The notes under the pieces: generated by a model | Database searches by the model: none | Told to the model about the DNA's origin: nothing | Seen by the model: only the letters and a program-made list of their open reading frames with translations | Made by a program: the position numbers and the translations under genes | Shown: piece after piece, positions 25,576 to 62,264 of the stretch | How positions within the stretch are numbered: the stretch's first letter is position 1 | Layout: each line of letters begins with the position of its first letter | Virus record (IMG/VR): IMGVR_UViG_3300033148_006964 | Location: 64,001 to 128,000 of that record | DNA: 64,000 bases | From: a virus | Reading direction: 5' to 3' (one strand)

Positions 25576-25603
25576 AAAATAGCGCCCGTTAGGGCGTTAC
25601 TTT
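25576..25603. terminator. Terminator at the convergence of the two genome arms
   Basis: Stem AGCGCCC/GGGCGTT with GTTA loop; A-tract on the left and T-rich bases on the right. Confidence 0.7.
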
Positions 25604-25625: not shown

Positions 25626-25964
25626 TCAGTTAATGGATTTGCTGCTGTTATTGTGCAACTGTTCTTCAACCGAAACGGTTACGAACGCATCTATAAATTT
25701 TTCAACTTCTTCGCTGGTAAAGGCTCTAGCTTTACCTTCTTTATCAATTATCTGCAAAGTAAGATGCGGCACAATGTTTACAAAAGTCCTTTCTCCAGAC
25801 TTATATAGTATTTCGAACGATCCTTCTTCTTCAATATCTAAGTCTCGTTCTTTTAAGTTTTGATATGAGTATTTAATTTCTGTTACTTCGTTCATAGAAA
25901 TAATATTAATATTAGTTGTTAAAGATTCATTATCCTTTGGCCTTTCTAAAATTTTTATAAACAC
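25626..25964 (-). CDS. Hypothetical protein
   Basis: 112-aa ORF with a GGAGG RBS. Confidence 0.75.
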   Translation of the reverse strand: MFIKILERPKDNESLTTNINIISMNEVTEIKYSYQNLKERDLDIEEEGSFEILYKSGERTFVNIVPHLTLQIIDKEGKARAFTSEEVEKFIDAFVTVSVEEQLHNNSSKSIN

Positions 25965-25987: not shown

Positions 25988-26014
25988 AAAAGAGGGAATT
26001 ATTAATTCCCTCTT
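25988..26014 (-). terminator. Intrinsic terminator closing the Ubl operon
   Basis: Perfect stem AAGAGGGAATTA/TAATTCCCTCTT followed by Ts on the - strand. Confidence 0.75.
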
Positions 26015-26032
26015 AAATATAGCAATTAAAGA

Positions 26033-26509
26033 TTAAAGATTGCCCTTTGTTTTTTCTGAAAAAATCAACCTCATATTTCCATCATCATCTGGTCGTGTTA
26101 ATTCGGTTGAACCAGGAATACTCCCGCCACCTGTCGCAAGGCGATATTCATAAATTGGATCACCATTTTCTTTAAAAAATTCACTTCTTTGTTCGGAAGG
26201 AAGTTGATCAAGAAGTTGATTTATTGTGATGCCGTCTTCAACTGGAAGAGTAACATTAGCACCATTTCCAAATCTTATAATTGTAACATCCCATGGAACA
26301 TTACCTTTAGTCGGTTCTGCGATAAAAACACGCATTCCATCAGTAAGAATTTTATCAAGAGAAGCTGGAGATTGTCCTACAGTTACACATCCTTCAACAA
26401 ACTTTTCTTCAGCACGTTCTAAAAGATGTTTTATAGTAGCATCTTCATTAGTTTCAAAAGAAAACTCTCTATTAGCAGTACCCATTTTAATTAAAGTTAC
26501 ATCTAGCAT
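26033..26509 (-). CDS. Tandem ubiquitin-like (beta-grasp) protein with two domains, each ending TKGN
   Basis: Internal duplication (LDVTLIKMG..TIKHLL..TKGN / WDVTIIRFG..TINQLL..TKGNL); adjacent to E1 and JAB genes. Confidence 0.75.
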   Translation of the reverse strand: MLDVTLIKMGTANREFSFETNEDATIKHLLERAEEKFVEGCVTVGQSPASLDKILTDGMRVFIAEPTKGNVPWDVTIIRFGNGANVTLPVEDGITINQLLDQLPSEQRSEFFKENGDPIYEYRLATGGGSIPGSTELTRPDDDGNMRLIFSEKTKGNL

Positions 26510-26540
26510 TTTAATATCCTTCTAAAATATTGTATAGAAT

Positions 26541-27311
26541 TTAAGATGTACACGTCTCCCGCATTGCCATTACGGGCTCTTCATTAAATTTTTTTAAATA
26601 AAAAGATTCTGGATACAATGAAAATTGAACTTCATTCCATAAATGAAGTCCTATTTCATCATCGTTTCGTAGATTATCATTACCATAATGACAATTAAAA
26701 TGTTGTATAATTCTACCTGCTGCAATGCTTGCAATAAACATTACTGTAGTAATTATAGATTCACTTGCTCCACATAACGATGTTTCTGCTTCCTCATCTG
26801 TATATAAAGTTTGCATCCATTGTTCTACTTCGTCTCGTGAATGAGGATTAAATGCGTAAATCCGACCATTTCGCAACCCCATTCTGGTTTCAATTACAAG
26901 ATCCGTATTAAACGAACGCTTTATACATTTTTCAAATATTTCTTTTCTACTGGACATAGTATCTGTTAATAGCATCACATAATTTGATTTTACTGATTCT
27001 TGATCAGTAACCATCTCATTATGAGCTTCAATTTTAAATCCACATTTTCTTAAAATAATTTCTTTAAGAGCTTCGACTTTTGGCATGCCGACATGTGATT
27101 GCTCATATATTTGATTTGCTAAATTATGTTCAGCTACTATATCTCCATCGAATACTTTTAAAACACCCTGTTTTAATGGAGTGTTCCCCCATCCAAACTG
27201 AGCCAGCATTGAAGCGATATAACTTCCAGTAGCACCAACCCCAACCAGTGAAATTGTTTTTTTCCCAATATCAGTTGGATTAAGCAATTTTTGTTGTCTA
27301 GTGTAATCCAA
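26541..27311 (-). CDS. ThiF/E1-like ubiquitin-like activating enzyme
   Basis: GVGATG, DGDIVAEHNLANQ and PKVEAL motifs; candidate catalytic Cys in SLCG; likely TTG start at 27311, 1 nt after the JAB stop, with a GGAG RBS. Confidence 0.9.
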   Translation of the reverse strand: MDYTRQQKLLNPTDIGKKTISLVGVGATGSYIASMLAQFGWGNTPLKQGVLKVFDGDIVAEHNLANQIYEQSHVGMPKVEALKEIILRKCGFKIEAHNEMVTDQESVKSNYVMLLTDTMSSRKEIFEKCIKRSFNTDLVIETRMGLRNGRIYAFNPHSRDEVEQWMQTLYTDEEAETSLCGASESIITTVMFIASIAAGRIIQHFNCHYGNDNLRNDDEIGLHLWNEVQFSLYPESFYLKKFNEEPVMAMRETCTS

Positions 27312-27312
27312 T

Positions 27313-28161
27313 TTAAAATCTCCTGTTATTGATATCGTGAACCATTTCATCTAATTCATAATCTTCTAACATTATCTTATTAAGCTTTTCATTTCTTATT
27401 TTAAACAAGTCTTCTTGATAATTTAAAAGATTATTTTTATATTTCCCATTTTTTTTACTATATGACTTATAATTTGTAAAATCTTCTTCGGGGAGATTTA
27501 TTTTTTTAAGTTCTTTAACTTTTTTCTTAATATTATTAGTTTTAATAACTTTTTCAATCTTTTGTATTTTTTTAGCTGTATCAATATTATCGGTAGATAG
27601 TATTAACGCAACATCTTTAAGCTTTGTTTCTTCAGAGTTTTGTAATAGTCCGTCTTCTTCAACCGTCCATTTTACGTTATCAAACTTAATTTGTTGATTA
27701 TAATCAAAAAACGATACAGACATTATTTCTTTTTTATTACATATACCTCTTAAAAAATAAGTTTTTCTTCGATTCATTTTTTCAATTGCTTCGTCTTCAT
27801 CTTGTTGAGACGGACTGACCCCCATAGTATGGTGAGAATGCCCCCAGAATCTAACTTTTCCAATATCATCTTCTCTATTACGATTAATTAACCAAACCCC
27901 CATATCAGATTCACCTTCAGTGGATATTTCACATGTACCACCATTAGCTTCTGAATGTTTAGGATAAAAAATCTCTCTTATAAAATATGTATCATTACCA
28001 CGTTCATCTACGATTCCAAAAAAACCAACTTCATCTGAATGAACGTCAACTAATGCTTCTATCCATTTGATAGCAGAGCTTGCAAAAATTATCTTTGGCG
28101 CTTCTTTTTTTTCTGGCTTTAAAATTGTATAGGTTGTAGCTTCATTTTTTTCGAATTTCAA
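27313..28161 (-). CDS. JAB/MPN+ metallo-isopeptidase
   Basis: EVG...E and WGHSHH.MGVSPS.QD (JAMM H-x-H-x7-S-x2-D pattern). Confidence 0.9.
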   Translation of the reverse strand: MKFEKNEATTYTILKPEKKEAPKIIFASSAIKWIEALVDVHSDEVGFFGIVDERGNDTYFIREIFYPKHSEANGGTCEISTEGESDMGVWLINRNREDDIGKVRFWGHSHHTMGVSPSQQDEDEAIEKMNRRKTYFLRGICNKKEIMSVSFFDYNQQIKFDNVKWTVEEDGLLQNSEETKLKDVALILSTDNIDTAKKIQKIEKVIKTNNIKKKVKELKKINLPEEDFTNYKSYSKKNGKYKNNLLNYQEDLFKIRNEKLNKIMLEDYELDEMVHDINNRRF

Positions 28162-29261
28162 TCTTCACCCCCTACAATTGGCCAATTTTTTGCATTTCTA
28201 CCCCACTCATCTCCTAAATTTGGAGTTGTTACAAACCTGGTAAGTATATCCGTTAACATAAATAAATCTACATTAACAAAAGATTCAAATACACATTCCC
28301 AAGCAGATCCATAACAAGGAGTACCGCTTAAACAAACATGCGGACATTGAAATCCACCATCTGAATTATTAACTAAATATTCTCTTGTAAGATTTCTAAT
28401 TATAATAGGATTAGATGTATTAGCTTCTCCAAATAAAGTTTTTAATAAAACCCTAAACTCAATACGACCAATAAGTCTATTATTACCATCTATAGCATTT
28501 ACAGTCTGAAGATCTTTTGTTCTTATAATAAGATATCTTTTAGTAAATAATACATCATCAATTTTATTAGAATCATCTTCTATAAGCTCCTTAGCTTGTT
28601 CGATAATTTTTTTAATAAAAGGATGGTTTTCAATTGGAGTTCGAAGAACATCTATTTTATTTTTTAATTCTATTAAAATAGACATTTTTTTACTAAATAC
28701 ATTAACCTGTTCTTTTAATACCTTAGCTCTACTTGCAAGATCAGAGTTCATGCCTTCTGCTATGACTTCGGGTGCGTCATTTATATTTACAGTATTAAGA
28801 TTTTCATTAAACTTTTCAATCTTAGACCCTGAATCCTGGACATCTCTAAAGCTAAAATCATCTTCATCATAAGAATCATCTTCCACAGGCATTGCAGCAA
28901 GTATTGGTGGCTCTTGATCCGGTGGAATATCTTCTGGCGGTGCTTCGAGCGGTCCATCTGTAATTACCTGTTCTTCTAACGTCTCCGCTTGTGCTTCTGG
29001 TGCCGGACATTCATTAAGCTCTTGAACAATAGGTTCATGCAATTTACACGTAATTATATCTCCTGATATATCGTTTGTAATATGACACCCTCGTATTGTT
29101 GCGTCTTCAGTTATTAATTCAACTACCCTATCAGAGGATTGGTCTGCAACTTCTAATTCAAAAATACCATCTGATTCGTGAGATTTTAATATATAATCAA
29201 AAATCTCTTCATCAATATAATTAAGAGAGAAGTTTACAGCCGCATCTATTCTAATTTTCAT
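28158..29261 (-). CDS. Prokaryotic E2-like protein with an acidic N-terminal extension
   Basis: C-terminal CPHV..SG.PCYG motif resembling the Prok-E2 HPH...C-x-G signature. Confidence 0.6.
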   Translation of the reverse strand: MKIRIDAAVNFSLNYIDEEIFDYILKSHESDGIFELEVADQSSDRVVELITEDATIRGCHITNDISGDIITCKLHEPIVQELNECPAPEAQAETLEEQVITDGPLEAPPEDIPPDQEPPILAAMPVEDDSYDEDDFSFRDVQDSGSKIEKFNENLNTVNINDAPEVIAEGMNSDLASRAKVLKEQVNVFSKKMSILIELKNKIDVLRTPIENHPFIKKIIEQAKELIEDDSNKIDDVLFTKRYLIIRTKDLQTVNAIDGNNRLIGRIEFRVLLKTLFGEANTSNPIIIRNLTREYLVNNSDGGFQCPHVCLSGTPCYGSAWECVFESFVNVDLFMLTDILTRFVTTPNLGDEWGRNAKNWPIVGGED

Positions 29262-29281
29262 AAAAATTTTTTCCTTCCAAT

Positions 29282-31180
29282 TTAAGAATGAAGCGGAATC
29301 GCATCCGCTAAAATATTATCAAATTTTTTTTCTGCCTCAGATATTTTATTGAGGATCTTATTAATATCTTTATTTCTATCAGCATTGTTCGCTACTTCTT
29401 CACTTACTTCAGGCCACCTATCTATATAAGCTCCTGCAGCATCATCAGTGTTAGCTGTTTGCAAAAAAAGCATCAATTGAAAAATTATTTCATACAGATC
29501 TCTTCGTATGTAAGAATCGGCCATACTTTTTACTAAATTACCAAGACACATATGTCCATCTGAAAAAATATGTGGTGCTTGCATTTCTGTTTCAAGAGCC
29601 TCTATTTGATGTTTAGTGTTATAAATACGAATAGTGTTATTTTCATCATACCTTTCATCTAACATTCCAATTTTTATATGAAAAGTACCAATATCATGCC
29701 AACAGTTAGATCTATTATCTTGAGCATATAAATTATGAGTATATACATTAATTTTTCCATCTTTTATATTAATAGAACTTACTTCGTCAAGAGCTATGGT
29801 TTCGTTATAGTTATATAAAGCTTTTTCTTTTTCTTTTTTTTTCATATCAACTTCATCGAATGCGTCAATTTGATTCATATACTTCATCATCATCTTACCG
29901 CTTTCCATAGCTTTATTAAAATGCATTTCATAATCTTGTTTAGATTTTTCTTTTAATGTAGTAATCTCTTTCAAGATGCTTATGGCATTTTTAACTGAAA
30001 AATTTACATATTCCTCCTTATTCATTTGAGCTATATTATTATAATAGCCTAAATCAATCTTAAAAAGATCTTCATATTTAATATCATTATTAATTCTTCT
30101 TACAAATTCTTTAAATATTAACGATGAAGACTCATTTTCTCCAAAATAAACCATAGGATATAAAAATGTAATAAAGCATCTATCCTTAAGTGCCCATATA
30201 ACATTTGTAATAAAATCTTTAAAAATAAAATCAAATTTAGCATACGGTGAATTGGATTCATTTTTTAATATTTCTTCTATATCATTATATTTTTCAGTCT
30301 CTCTAAGCTCTTGAATTTCAGAATTTATTTCAGAAGAATGTAATACATGTAAATTTTTAATTGTATGACCAAAACATAATGCTTTACACCCAGGAGGCAC
30401 TTCTTTAAATTTAGAATTATCATACGGAACAAGAGATATTATTAACGTATGCTTTTCTATTTCTTTTAAATTAAATTCATTACTATCAAACAATGTTTTA
30501 AAATTATAAACTCCATTTGTAAGGAAAATAATATTTTTATTAGTTTTTTTTACTAAATTTACTACTTCCTTTTCTTGCGGGACATCACCAGTGCCGTATA
30601 TTATTACTTTACGATTTATTTTTTTTATTTCATCGTTACGTATAATAACCTGTGGACTTGCAAAATTTTCTGTAAACTTTACAAAAAATAAATCTATTTC
30701 TTTTTTTAATGGGTCTTCAAAAGTTGGTTGTTCTTCTTCATTTAATACCGCAGGAGTTGTATTAATTATATCACCTATTATATCCTCTTCTGAATCTTTA
30801 TGTTCATCATCAACAAAAAGATTTAATACAAAATCTTTAAAATCTGAAAGATCAAATCTGTTCGTTCCAATACCAAGATCTTTAATATTACGATATTGAT
30901 CGGTATTCTTTGTAGCTTCAGATGTTAATGCGTCTAATACATCGTCATCGGCATAATATTTATGTAACAATATCATCATTCCATTAATATTTGAAGCATA
31001 GTGCGTTGGACTAAGCACAGATAGATCATCTGACGCTACAAAATAATTAAGGATAATATCACTTATTTCATTAAAATCTTTTTCATTAATAGCAGCGGCT
31101 TCTCCACCATTATTCAATGCATATGGAATAAAATCAATATCAAGGAATTCTGCTAACCATTTTTCTATAAATCCATACAT
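29282..31180 (-). CDS. Second prokaryotic E2-like protein with a long N-terminal region and coiled coil
   Basis: C-terminal APHIFSDGHMCLGN motif. Confidence 0.65.
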   Translation of the reverse strand: MYGFIEKWLAEFLDIDFIPYALNNGGEAAAINEKDFNEISDIILNYFVASDDLSVLSPTHYASNINGMMILLHKYYADDDVLDALTSEATKNTDQYRNIKDLGIGTNRFDLSDFKDFVLNLFVDDEHKDSEEDIIGDIINTTPAVLNEEEQPTFEDPLKKEIDLFFVKFTENFASPQVIIRNDEIKKINRKVIIYGTGDVPQEKEVVNLVKKTNKNIIFLTNGVYNFKTLFDSNEFNLKEIEKHTLIISLVPYDNSKFKEVPPGCKALCFGHTIKNLHVLHSSEINSEIQELRETEKYNDIEEILKNESNSPYAKFDFIFKDFITNVIWALKDRCFITFLYPMVYFGENESSSLIFKEFVRRINNDIKYEDLFKIDLGYYNNIAQMNKEEYVNFSVKNAISILKEITTLKEKSKQDYEMHFNKAMESGKMMMKYMNQIDAFDEVDMKKKEKEKALYNYNETIALDEVSSINIKDGKINVYTHNLYAQDNRSNCWHDIGTFHIKIGMLDERYDENNTIRIYNTKHQIEALETEMQAPHIFSDGHMCLGNLVKSMADSYIRRDLYEIIFQLMLFLQTANTDDAAGAYIDRWPEVSEEVANNADRNKDINKILNKISEAEKKFDNILADAIPLHS

Positions 31181-31242
31181 AATAATGCACTCCTATTTAA
31201 ATAAAGGTTTAAAATTTTATGATAAATATTTCTATCATTGTA

Positions 31243-31271
31243 GTTATTACAGAAAAATGATTTGAATAACT
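31243..31271 (-). promoter_or_regulatory. Phage promoter P1 (AGTTAT-N17-AATAAC, extended TG) upstream of the Ubl operon
   Basis: One of seven copies with identical 17-nt spacing. Confidence 0.6.
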
Positions 31272-31690: not shown

Positions 31691-32014
31691 TCATTTTTTT
31701 CCTCTAAATTTTTGCGTAATACGACGTACTGTTGTGACTGATATTTTTAATCTTCTAGCTATTTCAAAACCTGTTAATCCTTGTTTGTTTAATTCTATAA
31801 TTTTTTTATTTCTTTGTTTTTTATTATTCGCAAGCGGTATAATACCTAATTCTTTTCTAACTCTATATACAGCTTGTCTGGTTACTCCAAGAATATCACC
31901 AATAGCTTTATCTGTACGATAAAGTGATTGCATTCTTTTTATATACATCGGTGTAACGATTCCAACTGTACCTAATTTCATGACAGCATCTCCTTCAATA
32001 AAAACTACCCACAT
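31691..32014 (-). CDS. Double helix-turn-helix DNA-binding protein
   Basis: DKAIGDILGVTRQAVYRVR and GFEIARRLKISVTTVRR; true start probably 31981. Confidence 0.75.
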   Translation of the reverse strand: MWVVFIEGDAVMKLGTVGIVTPMYIKRMQSLYRTDKAIGDILGVTRQAVYRVRKELGIIPLANNKKQRNKKIIELNKQGLTGFEIARRLKISVTTVRRITQKFRGKK

Positions 32015-32413: not shown

Positions 32414-32668
32414 TTAATTCTTTTTTCTTGCCCAACTTATTATAAGTTTGCGAGACCTAATGTTTAAATCGTTATTATTTTCAATTGCATTTATAGCATC
32501 CTGATCTTCAGCCATTGTAACAAAACCAAACCCTTTAGATTTTTTGGTTTCCTTGTCCTTAACAATAAAAGCCTCTTCTACAGATCCAACATTAGTTTCA
32601 AAAACTTCTTTTAATTCATTCGCAGTAGTATCATAAGGAATGTTTCCTATGTATAACTTTTTTGCCAT
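32414..32668 (-). CDS. RRM RNA-binding protein
   Basis: RNP2 LYIGNI and RNP1 KGFGFVTM; start at 32668 (MAKKLY) after an AAGGA RBS. Confidence 0.92.
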   Translation of the reverse strand: MAKKLYIGNIPYDTTANELKEVFETNVGSVEEAFIVKDKETKKSKGFGFVTMAEDQDAINAIENNNDLNIRSRKLIISWARKKN

Positions 32669-32810
32669 GTTTTTACATCCTTTAAATGAAGAGAAAGAAA
32701 AAGAGAGAGAAATTAAAACCTCTCCCTCTTCTTCTAACAGCAAATGGCCAATTAAGACCAATTAGTACTTTTAAATAAAAAAAAATATGTTATTTATTTC
32801 ATTCAATATA

Positions 32811-32839
32811 GTTATATCATAAACATAGTAAAAATAACA
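32811..32839 (-). promoter_or_regulatory. Phage promoter P2 (TGTTAT-N17-TATAAC)
   Basis: Repeated motif with an extended TG. Confidence 0.7.
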
Positions 32840-48635: not shown

Positions 48636-48664
48636 GTTATACCACGTTTTTGTTAAAAATAACA
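48636..48664 (-). promoter_or_regulatory. Phage promoter P3 (TGTTAT-N17-TATAAC)
   Basis: Repeated motif. Confidence 0.7.
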
Positions 48665-49570: not shown

Positions 49571-49599
49571 GTTATACCAGATTTTTGTTTTTAATAACT
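49571..49599 (-). promoter_or_regulatory. Phage promoter P4 (AGTTAT-N17-TATAAC)
   Basis: Repeated motif. Confidence 0.65.
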
Positions 49600-49790: not shown

Positions 49791-50969
49791 TTATTGTAAA
49801 AGTTTTTTTAAATATTGAAGATAACTATCGTTTTCACACATACATTTACCAGGAGAATCACTGATCTTAGCCACAGGCCTTCCATTGACCTCTACAAGCT
49901 TATATACGTTCTGTAGAGGTATTATACCAACATCATTGGTAAGGTTAGTGCCGATGCCGAAAGAACACTTTATTTTTCCTTTACAATAATCAGCGATCTC
50001 TATTGCTTTTGGGATAGTAAGGCCATCTGAGAATACAATAGTTTTTCCAAGCGGGTTTACTTTTAAAGACTTGTAAGACTTAATAATCTTTTTAGCAAAA
50101 GTAATTGGGTTTCCCGAATCGTGTCGAACGCCATCGTATACTCTTAAAAAGTATGGCTTAGAATCTTTAAGGAATTTATCAACCCCAAGTGTATCTGATA
50201 ACGCAATAGATAATTGACTCCCATAAAAATTACGCCAAATATCAAGTGCTTTTCGTTGAGAATCAAGAGGGTGACGAAACGCTTGATAATAGCAAACAAA
50301 TTCATGAGCGAAAGTGCCTACTGGTGTTAAATTAAAATCCATAGCAAGCTTAACATTGCTGGTTCCAGTAAAAATTTCTGACGGAAAAATTCCAGAAAGA
50401 TTCTTAATAACAGTTCTATGCCATTTTCTAGTAAACGCTCTTCTTGTGCCAAAATCTACAAATTTGAATTCATTATTTTCAGTGTAATCTACTATAAGCC
50501 TCATTTTTTCATTTAGCCTCTCCATACCAGTTTTACGCTCTACAGAGTAGTCGTAATGTTTATTATTATGAAGTGAGTATACTTCATGTACTATTTGAAG
50601 AAGATATATTTCCCACATCATAACTTGTAAGATTGGCCCTTCAGCCCATATTTCGAGACGTCCAAGATCATTACTAATATGAAGATATTGTTTATCAAGT
50701 TGGAATGTCTCAAGATAATTCAAGTATTCAGAGCAGAAGAATGATAAGTTTCTTAGATAATTAATTTCCTTTTTAGTGAACCTTAAATTACACAAGTTTA
50801 TTAATCTTTTATCAACTTCATCTTTACACTTATATAAATTTCTAGTTTCTTTAGATTCATTTTCATTTCTACATTTAAACCTGTATTTAGCTATGCTATC
50901 AGAATCTTGATAAAAAAATATCTGCTGCATAGTAAACTTGTACAGGTCATTATATAATAAACTTTGCAT
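49791..50969 (-). CDS. pncB: Nicotinate phosphoribosyltransferase
   Basis: DLYKFTM, DFGTRR, GTSNV, GTFAHE, RHDSG, FSDGL, FGIGT and KISD motifs. Confidence 0.93.
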   Translation of the reverse strand: MQSLLYNDLYKFTMQQIFFYQDSDSIAKYRFKCRNENESKETRNLYKCKDEVDKRLINLCNLRFTKKEINYLRNLSFFCSEYLNYLETFQLDKQYLHISNDLGRLEIWAEGPILQVMMWEIYLLQIVHEVYSLHNNKHYDYSVERKTGMERLNEKMRLIVDYTENNEFKFVDFGTRRAFTRKWHRTVIKNLSGIFPSEIFTGTSNVKLAMDFNLTPVGTFAHEFVCYYQAFRHPLDSQRKALDIWRNFYGSQLSIALSDTLGVDKFLKDSKPYFLRVYDGVRHDSGNPITFAKKIIKSYKSLKVNPLGKTIVFSDGLTIPKAIEIADYCKGKIKCSFGIGTNLTNDVGIIPLQNVYKLVEVNGRPVAKISDSPGKCMCENDSYLQYLKKLLQ

Positions 50970-50981
50970 AATATTTTCTCC

Positions 50982-51617
50982 TTATAGATCACAAACGAGA
51001 TCTGTTTTTATTATAGATGCACCCATCTTGTTCATTTCTTTAATGGCAGTTTCATGGTTGTCTTCATTGCTAATAAATATTCCCGCCGTTGCGTCTTCAA
51101 CAACATAAACCTTATCTAAGATATGTCCCATTTCGTTAATTAAACCCTTGACTGCTGCTATAACACAAAAATTTGTAGCCACGCCAGAAACGACAACGCT
51201 GTCTATGCTATTAAGCACAAGTATTTTTGTAAGGTTGTCTGGTTGTCCAAGCTCTTTGTCCCATATGTCACACGTTGCCTTTTCAAAAATATAATTGCAA
51301 ACAGGTTCTACTATAAAGTTTGAAAGTTCACTTCCTAACTTACTTTTTATACAGTTACAAAAAACCATATTTGTTTCTGGAATTTTCTTATGCCCATCTG
51401 TATTAGCCATACAATGCGGAGGGAACCTATTAAACTCCGGGTCGTCATCTTTATGAGTGTCAACAGTAGCAACGATAGGAATTGAGTGATTGCAGCAATG
51501 AAAGGTTAAATCTCTAAGGTTTTTCTTAATATTTTTTGCGCCCGGAACGTACAATGCTCCATCCTCATTCATAAAATCATTTTGTGTATCAATGTCAAGA
51601 AATAAAAAGTTACCCAT
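50982..51617 (-). CDS. pncA: Nicotinamidase (isochorismatase fold)
   Basis: DTQNDF, DTH, FPPHC, K and GVATNFCV motifs. Confidence 0.9.
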   Translation of the reverse strand: MGNFLFLDIDTQNDFMNEDGALYVPGAKNIKKNLRDLTFHCCNHSIPIVATVDTHKDDDPEFNRFPPHCMANTDGHKKIPETNMVFCNCIKSKLGSELSNFIVEPVCNYIFEKATCDIWDKELGQPDNLTKILVLNSIDSVVVSGVATNFCVIAAVKGLINEMGHILDKVYVVEDATAGIFISNEDNHETAIKEMNKMGASIIKTDLVCDL

Positions 51618-62235: not shown

Positions 62236-62264
62236 GTTATACCATATTATTAAAATAAATAACA
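62236..62264 (-). promoter_or_regulatory. Phage promoter P7 (TGTTAT-N17-TATAAC)
   Basis: Repeated motif. Confidence 0.7.

Follow-up and report, generated by a model that had tools for sequence, protein, structure and literature searches.

Five genes and their predicted products

The window analysed here, a stretch of 64,000 nucleotides, runs from base 64001 to base 128000 of IMG/VR record IMGVR_UViG_3300033148_006964, a viral sequence of 180,926 bp that CheckV rates as complete; all positions given below are those of the window. In the list of open reading frames (ORFs) of the window, five follow one another head to tail across positions 26033-31180 of the minus strand, in the order A, B, JAB, E1 and di-Ubl. 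Their predicted products are two E2-like proteins, a metalloprotease, an E1-like protein and a tandem ubiquitin-like (Ubl) protein. An earlier note, made from the letters of this DNA, had described five co-oriented and tightly spaced genes here, and all five ORFs are borne out on the minus strand.

Gene A (29282-31180) encodes 632 amino acids, namely an N-terminal region of ~450 residues without a fold match, a helical stretch, and a C-terminal UBC/E2-like domain. Gene B (28158-29261; 367 amino acids) has a variable, acidic N-terminal half, again followed by a helical stretch and a C-terminal E2-like domain. The JAB gene (27313-28161; 282 amino acids) begins with a TTG codon that overlaps the stop codon of B, and encodes a putative JAMM/JAB (MPN+) metalloprotease. 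The gene for the single-domain, ThiF/E1-like protein is listed as 26541-27350, i.e., 269 amino acids, but its start is most likely the TTG at 27311 (26541-27311; 256 amino acids), and probably not the ATG at 27350, because the TTG lies 8 nucleotides after an AGGAG, directly follows the JAB stop, and yields the N-terminus MDYxRQ seen in all orthologues. The last gene, di-Ubl (26033-26509), encodes 158 amino acids, with one predicted beta-grasp unit in residues 1-70 and another in residues 71-157. A and B are separated by 20 nucleotides, the B stop and the JAB start overlap by 4 nucleotides (ATTGA), a single nucleotide lies between the JAB stop and the E1 TTG, and E1 and di-Ubl are 31 nucleotides apart. 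That start and stop codons overlap or abut suggests translational coupling of the cassette genes.

The C-terminal ~140 residues of A and B are homologous to each other (BLASTP, 3e-8). The E2-like domains span residues ~455-600 of A (window 29381-29818) and residues ~228-364 of B (window 28170-28580), and each includes a motif of the form H-x7-C-x-G. In A this motif is APHIFSDGHMCLG (H537-x7-C545-x-G547), and in B it is CPHVCLSGTPCYG (C306-x-H308-x7-C316-x-G318). Among the homologues of A (n=17), H495, D496, P536, H537, G542, C545 and G547 are invariant. A joint alignment of the E2-like domains of A and B from seven phages, referred to as A5, has ten invariant columns (T, G, N, H, C, G, F, D, G, P), which include those of H-x7-C-x-G. 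B-type domains have an additional invariant cysteine two residues ahead of the histidine (C-x-H-x7-C-x-G), which A-type domains lack; this cysteine may contribute to a metal site or provide a second thiol.

A structural model of the E2-like domain was created with AlphaFold (AF2) from A5. The resulting model has a predicted local distance difference test score (pLDDT) of 90.6 and a predicted template-modelling score (pTM) of 0.85, with secondary-structure elements in the order H-E-E-E-E-loop-H-H. When it was compared with the PDB using Foldseek, the first 50 matches were all UBC-family E2 enzymes (best E 8e-3, probability up to 0.99, template-modelling score (TM) ~0.5). VIA-align, which is independent of Foldseek and was run against 48,161 representative chains, returned E2, UEV or RWD proteins in ~40 of its best 50 matches. 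UbcH10 (Z 7.3), UBE2E1 (Z 7.2) and many further E2 enzymes stand at the top; RWD domains (Knl1, Z 7.0-7.6) score on par with the true E2 enzymes, and the bacterial proteins CdnG-E2, Cap2 and BubB score lower (Z 5.3-5.6). When VIA-align was applied to the Foldseek candidates, UBE2S was the best match (Z 7.9, 113 residues, root-mean-square deviation (rmsd) 3.1 Å), and the matches with Z 7.3-7.9 align 110-114 residues with an rmsd of 3.1-3.7 Å. In the model, the H-x7-C-x-G motif, with its candidate catalytic cysteine and candidate HPN-type histidine, lies between the last strands and the helix formed by residues 93-104. The E2-like assignment follows from the uniformity of these matches, together with the position of the conserved histidine and cysteine between the sheet and the next helix; the Z values alone are not decisive. 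With the model as a guide, UBC/E2-like is the only reasonable reading of the C-terminal domains of A and B. The two proteins with C-terminal PH...C-x-G motifs had already been called E2 proteins in the earlier note, whose interpretation would fall if the large ORFs lacked a UBC fold; the order of elements in the model and its E2 matches indicate that they have one.

Sequence profiles were uninformative for these proteins. Pfam, NCBIfam and PADLOC gave no match to A or B at E <=0.1, and PHROGs gave nothing significant. The UBC/E2 profiles of Pfam (UQ_con and Prok-E2_A-E), a search for which the earlier note had called, do not match A or B. Sequence-profile searches of the PDB with A5 or with a profile of full-length A gave no meaningful match, and a Pfam scan of 18 homologues of A gave scattered single matches only. 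For the N-terminus of A, a lookup in the Atlas found no usable feature match, and its structural model is poor (pLDDT 0.46, all TM values below 0.4).

An exhaustive profile search for the E2-like domain, with clusters at 50% identity, yielded 2168 representatives at E <=1e-3 and 981 at E <=1e-10. Residues were counted on 163 domains in the best 156 proteins, these being representatives less than 50% identical. The cysteine is kept in 161 of the 163 domains, and the histidine in 158. All 149 unfused domains keep both residues, and likewise the glycine, without exception; the 69 B-size representatives all have histidine, cysteine and glycine. Seven proteins are fusions of two E2-like domains. 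Their first domain is intact in every case, while the second has lost the histidine in five, the glycine in all seven, and the cysteine in two, so that every loss of histidine or cysteine falls in a second, fused domain. Because the losses are confined in this manner, it appears that A and B are both under selection as enzymes in the clade to which the window belongs, as judged by these alignments. That two E2-like domains are fused and one partner decays suggests, in turn, that A and B work as a pair.

The E1 protein matches Pfam ThiF (PF00899) over residues 27-225, which form one domain; the match reaches 72.9 bits (2.8e-20) and exceeds the cut-off of 28.1. In seven orthologues, R18 (the Arg finger), G37-x-G39-x-x-G42, D68, K91, D130, R135 and C193 are invariant, and C193 lies in an S-x-C-G-A-S loop. 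The protein has no CxxC zinc motifs. Models of NCBIfam and PADLOC (ThiF, MoeB, PRTRC ThiF and Cap2) match the Rossmann core only, all far below their cut-offs. The description of this protein as a ThiF/E1 with a candidate catalytic cysteine thus holds up.

In the JAB protein, E44, H108-S-H110, S118 and D121 are invariant among orthologues, and the motif E...HxHx7SxxD is complete. Each of 120 homologues retains the JAMM motif, with a spacer of x7-8 in 116 and of x6, one residue shorter, in four. The Pfam Prok-JAB model (PF14464) scores weakly (13.5-14.8 bits against a cut-off of 25) and covers the motif only, although this match is the sole one in the six frames of the 181-kb genome. A Prok-JAB search had been proposed before; its match falls exactly on the motif, and yet remains below the curated cut-off. 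In the Atlas, a language-model lookup, the N-terminal 175 residues score 0.95 to a cluster of JAB domain-containing proteins, 23% of whose members carry Prok-JAB. A sequence-profile search of the PDB with the JAB profile gave no meaningful match. From the conserved motif, we predict that the JAB gene encodes a JAMM/JAB (MPN+) metalloprotease, in agreement with the JAMM protease (HSH..S..D) first noticed at this position.

The two halves of di-Ubl resemble each other (E 2e-4). An AF2 model built from 34 homologues (pLDDT 87.5) shows the order beta-beta-alpha-beta-beta twice, and Foldseek, at probability 1.0 and E from 2.6e-6 to 1e-4, matches it to linear di-ubiquitin, FAT10 and ISG15, which agrees with the tandem beta-grasp protein proposed from the sequence. 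The residues K-G-N are invariant at the ends of both repeats (34-36 homologues). In 16 of 36 homologues KGN is the very C-terminus, and the rest add 1-15 unconserved residues. Pfam ThiS matches three of the 36 homologues, and one source labels its copy a sulfur carrier protein ThiS.

Conservation of the cassette among related phages

Nine metagenome contigs were found through protein A, and the order A-B-JAB-ThiF-Ubl is present in all nine. In these contigs the cassette is flanked by a replication block, with RNase T/PD-(D/E)XK, SNF2 helicase, RRM, HTH and VRR-NUC proteins; on the opposite flank, six of the nine have a convergent gene for a protein of 685-701 amino acids. Searching viral contigs with E1 succeeded as an alignment-based scan, whereas a scan with the single E1 sequence found nothing; the full set of genes was present at 16 of 16 further loci found through E1. 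Another 22 loci were found through the neighbouring 688-amino-acid protein, for which Pfam, NCBIfam and PHROGs have no match. The cassette is present in 14 of the 14 that reach far enough, two of them ending at the contig end; in another genome the cassette lies beyond the fetched flank, and two entries (L027 and L037) are one contig. The synteny holds down to 48% identity for the 688-amino-acid neighbour and 54% for E1. JAB homologues number at least 303, on contigs of up to 208 kb.

The survey of synteny that the earlier note had suggested therefore found the order intact at every locus with enough sequence, and the claim that the virus itself owns the whole set agrees with the same order being kept at 39 related loci. 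Because the order is complete in every related contig with enough sequence, the cassette is better described as a core module than as accessory genes. As far as these contigs allow us to judge, it is a phage module and one of the core components of a large clade, whose members are uncultured phages with genomes of ~150-210 kb. This clade appears to be poorly charted, since eight large proteins encoded on the plus strand of the window (3342-23347) have no PHROG match.

A tblastn search with A against 50,697 deposited phage genomes gave no match, and JAB gave one marginal match in the same records. In a set of 185,579 prokaryotic species, with one genome per species, there were three close matches. 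They lie on contigs with complete or partial cassettes (L014, L015 and L016), which are binned in GTDB metagenome-assembled genomes (MAGs) of the unrelated Chitinophagales, Thermoplasmatales and Methanobacteriota; one of the contigs is 168 kb long, as large as an entire phage genome. All three are most likely misbinned phage DNA, and not evidence of a host.

A divergent variant was found in an NCBI metagenome contig (L012:347-7195). It encodes a 786-amino-acid protein, a 654-amino-acid fusion of two E2-like domains, a JAB-PDZ fusion, a ThiF protein and a di-Ubl. The second E2-like domain has neither the histidine nor the glycine, and the di-Ubl consists of head-to-tail, near-identical repeats ending in VKGNG. 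By its domain content, this variant keeps the same logic as the cassette of the window. We had also considered that each E2 serves a distinct Ubl; this idea was dropped, as the variant has near-identical Ubl repeats and yet two E2 domains.

Relation to known systems and a predicted conjugation cascade

The closest functional parallel is the bacterial BilABCD operon, in which a Ubl, an E2, a JAB and an E1 are likewise encoded together, with no E3 (10.1101/2023.09.04.556158; PMC10557695). As in the cassette, the Bil Ubl may have two or three beta-grasp domains in tandem, and the E2 has its cysteine with a conserved histidine nearby. In Type II Bil systems the glycine of the Ubl is universally conserved and is followed by up to nine unconserved residues, which BilC trims (PMC10557695). 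The cassette pattern is comparable, i.e., a conserved glycine followed by Asn and 0-15 variable residues, but the invariant Asn after the glycine and the internal KGN site between the repeats set it apart from Bil. There are further differences. BilABCD is an anti-phage operon of the host, whereas the cassette is encoded by a phage, in a complete 181-kb virus record. BilABCD has one small E2, in contrast to two E2-like paralogues with N-terminal extensions of 230-450 residues. In BilB the cysteine is residue 138 and the histidine residue 151, whereas in the cassette the histidine precedes the cysteine by 8 residues, in an HPN-like arrangement. The BilD E1 has the architecture IAD-AAD-CYS (PMC11601596), and the cassette E1 is a single ThiF domain of 256 amino acids. 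PADLOC finds only E1-E2 matches, to Cap2 of the cyclic-oligonucleotide-based antiphage signalling system (CBASS), in the ThiF core, and none for A, B, JAB or Ubl. The cassette is predicted to work like Bil-type systems but lies outside Bil membership, because the E1 lacks IAD-AAD-CYS, the two E2-like proteins have long extensions, no defence model matches, and the virus owns the genes.

Other systems resemble the cassette in part. Bub and Type II CBASS also combine an E1 with an E2, and in some cases a JAB, and BubB and Cap2 are among the structural matches of the E2-like domain (Z 5.3-5.4). In Bub (6E/DUF6527), however, the E2 uses a catalytic Ser and the E1 a Tyr, which form oxyesters, and the protease is the serine protease DUF6527 (PMC11601596); the cassette has an invariant Cys in its E2-like domains and no DUF6527 match in Pfam. 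Cap2 is an E2-E1 fusion that conjugates the CD-NTase, whereas the E1 and E2-like genes of the cassette are separate, and no nucleotidyltransferase was found in the operon or its flanks. The eukaryotic systems provide the best structural matches, namely linear di-ubiquitin, FAT10 and ISG15 for the Ubl, and UBE2S, UbcH10, UBE2E1 and Ubc13 for the E2-like domain, and the head-to-tail, near-identical repeats of the divergent variant recall polyubiquitin genes. Identity to these proteins is nevertheless only 10-18%, the Ubl ends in KGN and not GG, the E1 is minimal, and there is neither an E3 nor a proteasome context. The PRTRC cassettes, with which the earlier note had compared the operon, fail on scores: the ThiF family TIGR03736 gives 39.1 bits against a cut-off of 144.75, and the other PRTRC models of NCBIfam do not match. 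A full-text literature search found no paper on a phage-encoded Ubl cascade of this layout, which accords with the earlier statement that no characterised phage system of the kind is known; the phage Ub-like domains covered by a survey from 2006 are only those of the tail-assembly protein I, together with protein K's JAB (PMC1779556).

Of the cassette proteins, the E1 alone has relatives among deposited phages, namely in Flavobacterium phage FpV4, crAss-like Bacteroides phages and some jumbo phages. The closest are those of crAss001 and FpV4, with 28% identity (5e-14 and 2e-10). In both of these cultured Bacteroidota phages (crAss001 gp77-gp76, L054:4265-6663; FpV4 gp51-gp50, L001:4692-6624), the gene immediately upstream of ThiF encodes the JAMM motif HSHNNMATFFSGTD, an HxHx7SxxD at about residue 108-112, as in the window JAB. 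The pair lies in a replication module, beside a primase, UDG and a PD-(D/E)XK nuclease, and its annotation goes no further than 'metalloprotease' and 'thiamine biosynthesis protein'. Profiles find no E2-like protein, JAB or di-Ubl at the FpV4 and crAss001 loci, where the JAB is recognized by motif only, and there is no H-x-C-x-G motif. Going by these motifs, crAss001 and FpV4 would carry at least a JAB-E1 pair, and we flag these pairs as possible tractable relatives in cultured phages. A Foldseek search of BFVD gave hints of E2-like folds in uncharacterised proteins of 370-540 amino acids from crAss-like and other uncultured phages.

Taken together, we think it probable, though far from certain, that the cassette is a phage-encoded cascade of Ubl activation and transfer, with conjugation to proteins as its final step. 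The analysis itself shows the folds, the catalytic motifs with their degree of conservation, how the operon is built and the synteny across the clade, and the chemistry is predicted from them. In the cascade that we propose, JAB would trim the 158-amino-acid precursor at the two invariant Lys-Gly-Asn sites, thereby exposing a C-terminal glycine. Cleavage after the glycine is proposed owing to the likeness to the tail pattern of Type II BilA. JAB would probably also split the two beta-grasp units from each other, as occurs with polyubiquitin, given the invariant internal KGN and the near-identical KGNG repeats of the divergent variant. Next, the E1, a single-domain protein of ThiF type that presumably forms a homodimer in the manner of MoeB or ThiF, would adenylate the C-terminus of the tag and take it over as a thioester on the invariant loop residue C193. 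From there the tag would be handed on to the invariant cysteine in one E2-like domain or in both (C545 of A, C316 of B), where the histidine eight residues upstream may act as an HPN motif does. The E2-like proteins would act as a pair; as there is no E3, selection of the target may fall to their N-terminal regions, which are large and unrelated. JAB could also reverse the mark.

Several observations weigh against this reading. In absolute terms, the scores for the E2 fold are only middling (best Foldseek E 8e-3, Z <8), and no sequence profile of Pfam, NCBIfam, PADLOC or the PDB is significant for A, B, JAB or Ubl. The E1 has no separate Cys domain, and an invariant Asn79 replaces the Arg of the NLxRQ motif (HNLANQ), which is unusual for an adenylating E1. 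Lastly, the reactive end of the tag could be Asn and not Gly, since an invariant Asn follows the Gly and is terminal in 16 of the 36 homologues.

The atypical E1 and the invariant Asn, which is found at both repeat ends, are also what would be expected if the chemistry were unconventional or the target not a protein, i.e., if the E1 acted on a C-terminal Asn, or if the tag were placed on a lipid, a sugar or a nucleic acid. MccB, an E1-like enzyme, acts on the Asn at the end of the microcin C precursor, Atg3 attaches its tag to phosphatidylethanolamine, and the cassette lies in a replication gene block. Nevertheless, a conserved Gly with a removable tail is the normal Ubl pattern, with Bil as a direct precedent; the repeats of the divergent variant end in KGNG, so that their Asn is not terminal; and the presence of a JAB peptidase fits trimming. 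We therefore consider this explanation quite improbable. The same applies to a sulfur carrier, in which a ThiS/MoaD-type Ubl, released by JAB (cf. Mec+, CysO) and adenylated by ThiF, would be converted to a thiocarboxylate that serves to thiolate tRNA, DNA or a cofactor. It is true that in NCBIfam the E1 is matched best by ThiF models, albeit all below cut-off, that three Ubl homologues match Pfam ThiS and one is named accordingly, that the crAss001 and FpV4 homologues of the E1 are recorded as thiamine biosynthesis proteins, and that operons of JAB, E1 and ThiS/MoaD for sulfur assimilation are known (PMC1779556). Sulfur-carrier systems, however, use no E2-like proteins (PMC10557695), whereas the cassette has two with invariant His and Cys. 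The ThiS/MoaD pathways employ a single beta-grasp ending in GG and a sulfurtransferase or synthase partner; here, the beta-grasp is tandem, ends in KGN and has ubiquitin/ISG15-like folds. The E1 has no rhodanese domain, and neither the cassette nor those flanking genes that have a Pfam call yielded a sulfurtransferase, a cysteine desulfurase, ThiG/ThiH or MoaE. A sulfur carrier is thus, in our view, a very doubtful proposition. Slightly less credible still is the notion that A and B are not enzymes, and that their UBC/RWD-like domains only bind the Ubl of an E2-less Ubl-E1-JAB system like the archaeal SAMP/UbaA. The RWD domains that score equal to true E2 enzymes, the residues lost from the second domains of the fused proteins, and the inactive E2-like domains noted in such operons in 2006 (PMC1779556) would all be in keeping with it. 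What argues against it is the retention of His, Cys and Gly, without exception, in both paralogues of the unfused clade, and in the first domain of every fused protein.

If the cascade operates as predicted, the remaining question is what it serves. We favor a core infection function as more likely than an accessory role in counter-defence, because of the clade-wide conservation. Our tentative proposal, which may well prove wrong, is that the clade depends on its own system, in which an obligate pair of catalytic E2-like enzymes, either as a heterodimer or through an E2-to-E2 relay that replaces an E3, joins JAB-cut mono-Ubls to proteins of the phage or the host in a required step of infection. 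Alternatively, the same cascade might tag and thereby inactivate host immunity proteins, or its JAB and E2 might strip, or compete with, the conjugation that Bil or CBASS of the host carries out. The characterised bacterial relatives, Bil and Type II CBASS, all act in phage-host conflict (PMC10557695; 10.1101/2023.09.04.556158), and the phage carries the NAD-salvage genes pncA and pncB, an investment in conflict functions. By contrast, accessory anti-defence genes are usually patchy, whereas the cassette is complete, in the same order and place, in every adequate contig; it lies at the end of a replication gene block and not in a variable island; and beyond the ThiF core it has no sequence similarity to the Bil or Cap2/Cap3 models. 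On balance, a counter-defence role seems rather unlikely. The roles put forward in the earlier note, i.e., tagging of host immunity proteins, competition with Bil and exclusion of other phages, are speculation.

Prokaryotic Ubl conjugation has so far been characterised only as a bacterial anti-phage weapon (Bil, Type II CBASS), or been predicted to be one (Bub). The cassette would reverse these roles, in that a virus carries the full kit and keeps it across a whole, very diverse clade. Were the clade indeed to depend on an obligate pair, no prokaryotic virus before it would have been shown to have a complete ubiquitin-type cascade, and the E2-E2 pair would be the first of its kind. An active system would raise the questions of whether phage or host proteins are tagged, whether the E2-like pair replaces an E3, and whether the tandem Ubl is processed like polyubiquitin. 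The presence of a minimal, single-domain E1 alongside UBC-like E2 enzymes would also bear on the origin of the eukaryotic cascade.

Signals and genes around the cassette

Upstream of gene A, between it and the VRR-NUC gene, positions 31243-31270 (minus strand) form an exact palindrome, GTTATT-N16-AATAAC, which is a candidate promoter- or operator-like element. Chance would give 0.87 sites of the motif class GTTAT[TA]-N16-[TA]ATAAC in the window, and there are 8; among them are 31243-31270, 32811-32838, 48636-48663, 49571-49598 and 62236-62263. The two that were checked, at 31243 and 32811, are intergenic and upstream of minus-strand genes. From its recurrence and placement, the palindrome could be a promoter or operator class of the phage. 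A weak sigma-70-like site (31266-31237, score 9/12) overlaps it, but a sigma-70 scan gave no excess over chance (39 sites against 35 expected). Of the promoter P1 that had been placed at 31243-31271, therefore, a recurrent, perfect palindrome remains, and the sigma-70 signal does not exceed chance.

That promoter class had also been assigned to a pncA-pncB unit. The unit itself is real: on the minus strand, at 49791-51617, a NAPRTase gene, pncB (Pfam 4.6e-61), is adjacent to a nicotinamidase-like gene of the isochorismatase family, pncA, and by these family matches the two form an NAD-salvage pair of the phage. There is, however, no copy of the palindromic motif directly upstream of pncA-pncB.

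At the other end of the cassette, a hairpin followed by a U-run lies 3' of the Ubl gene (25988-26014, minus strand), where the earlier note had placed a terminator. It has an 11-bp stem and then UUUU, with a folding energy of -13.5 kcal/mol (z -3.39; no shuffled sequence equals its folding), and could act as a terminator or attenuator. A second, stronger and G+C-rich terminator, at 25583-25596, lies 3' of a small downstream ORF (25626-25964, minus strand; 112 amino acids), which has a GTG start and a GGAGG ribosome-binding site. Its position after the Ubl gene is kept in all nine contigs first fetched. The mean column identity is nonetheless only 33%, with the start Met alone being invariant, and the ORF was dropped as a member of the cassette, as its conservation is one of position and not of sequence. 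No Rfam family matches in the region. A link to the retron reverse transcriptase of the phage was likewise dropped, as that gene is ~88 kb away.

Just upstream of the cassette, on the minus strand, lie genes for an RRM-domain protein (32414-32761; Pfam 1.6e-19) and an HTH protein (31691-32014), both of which occupy the same place in related contigs.

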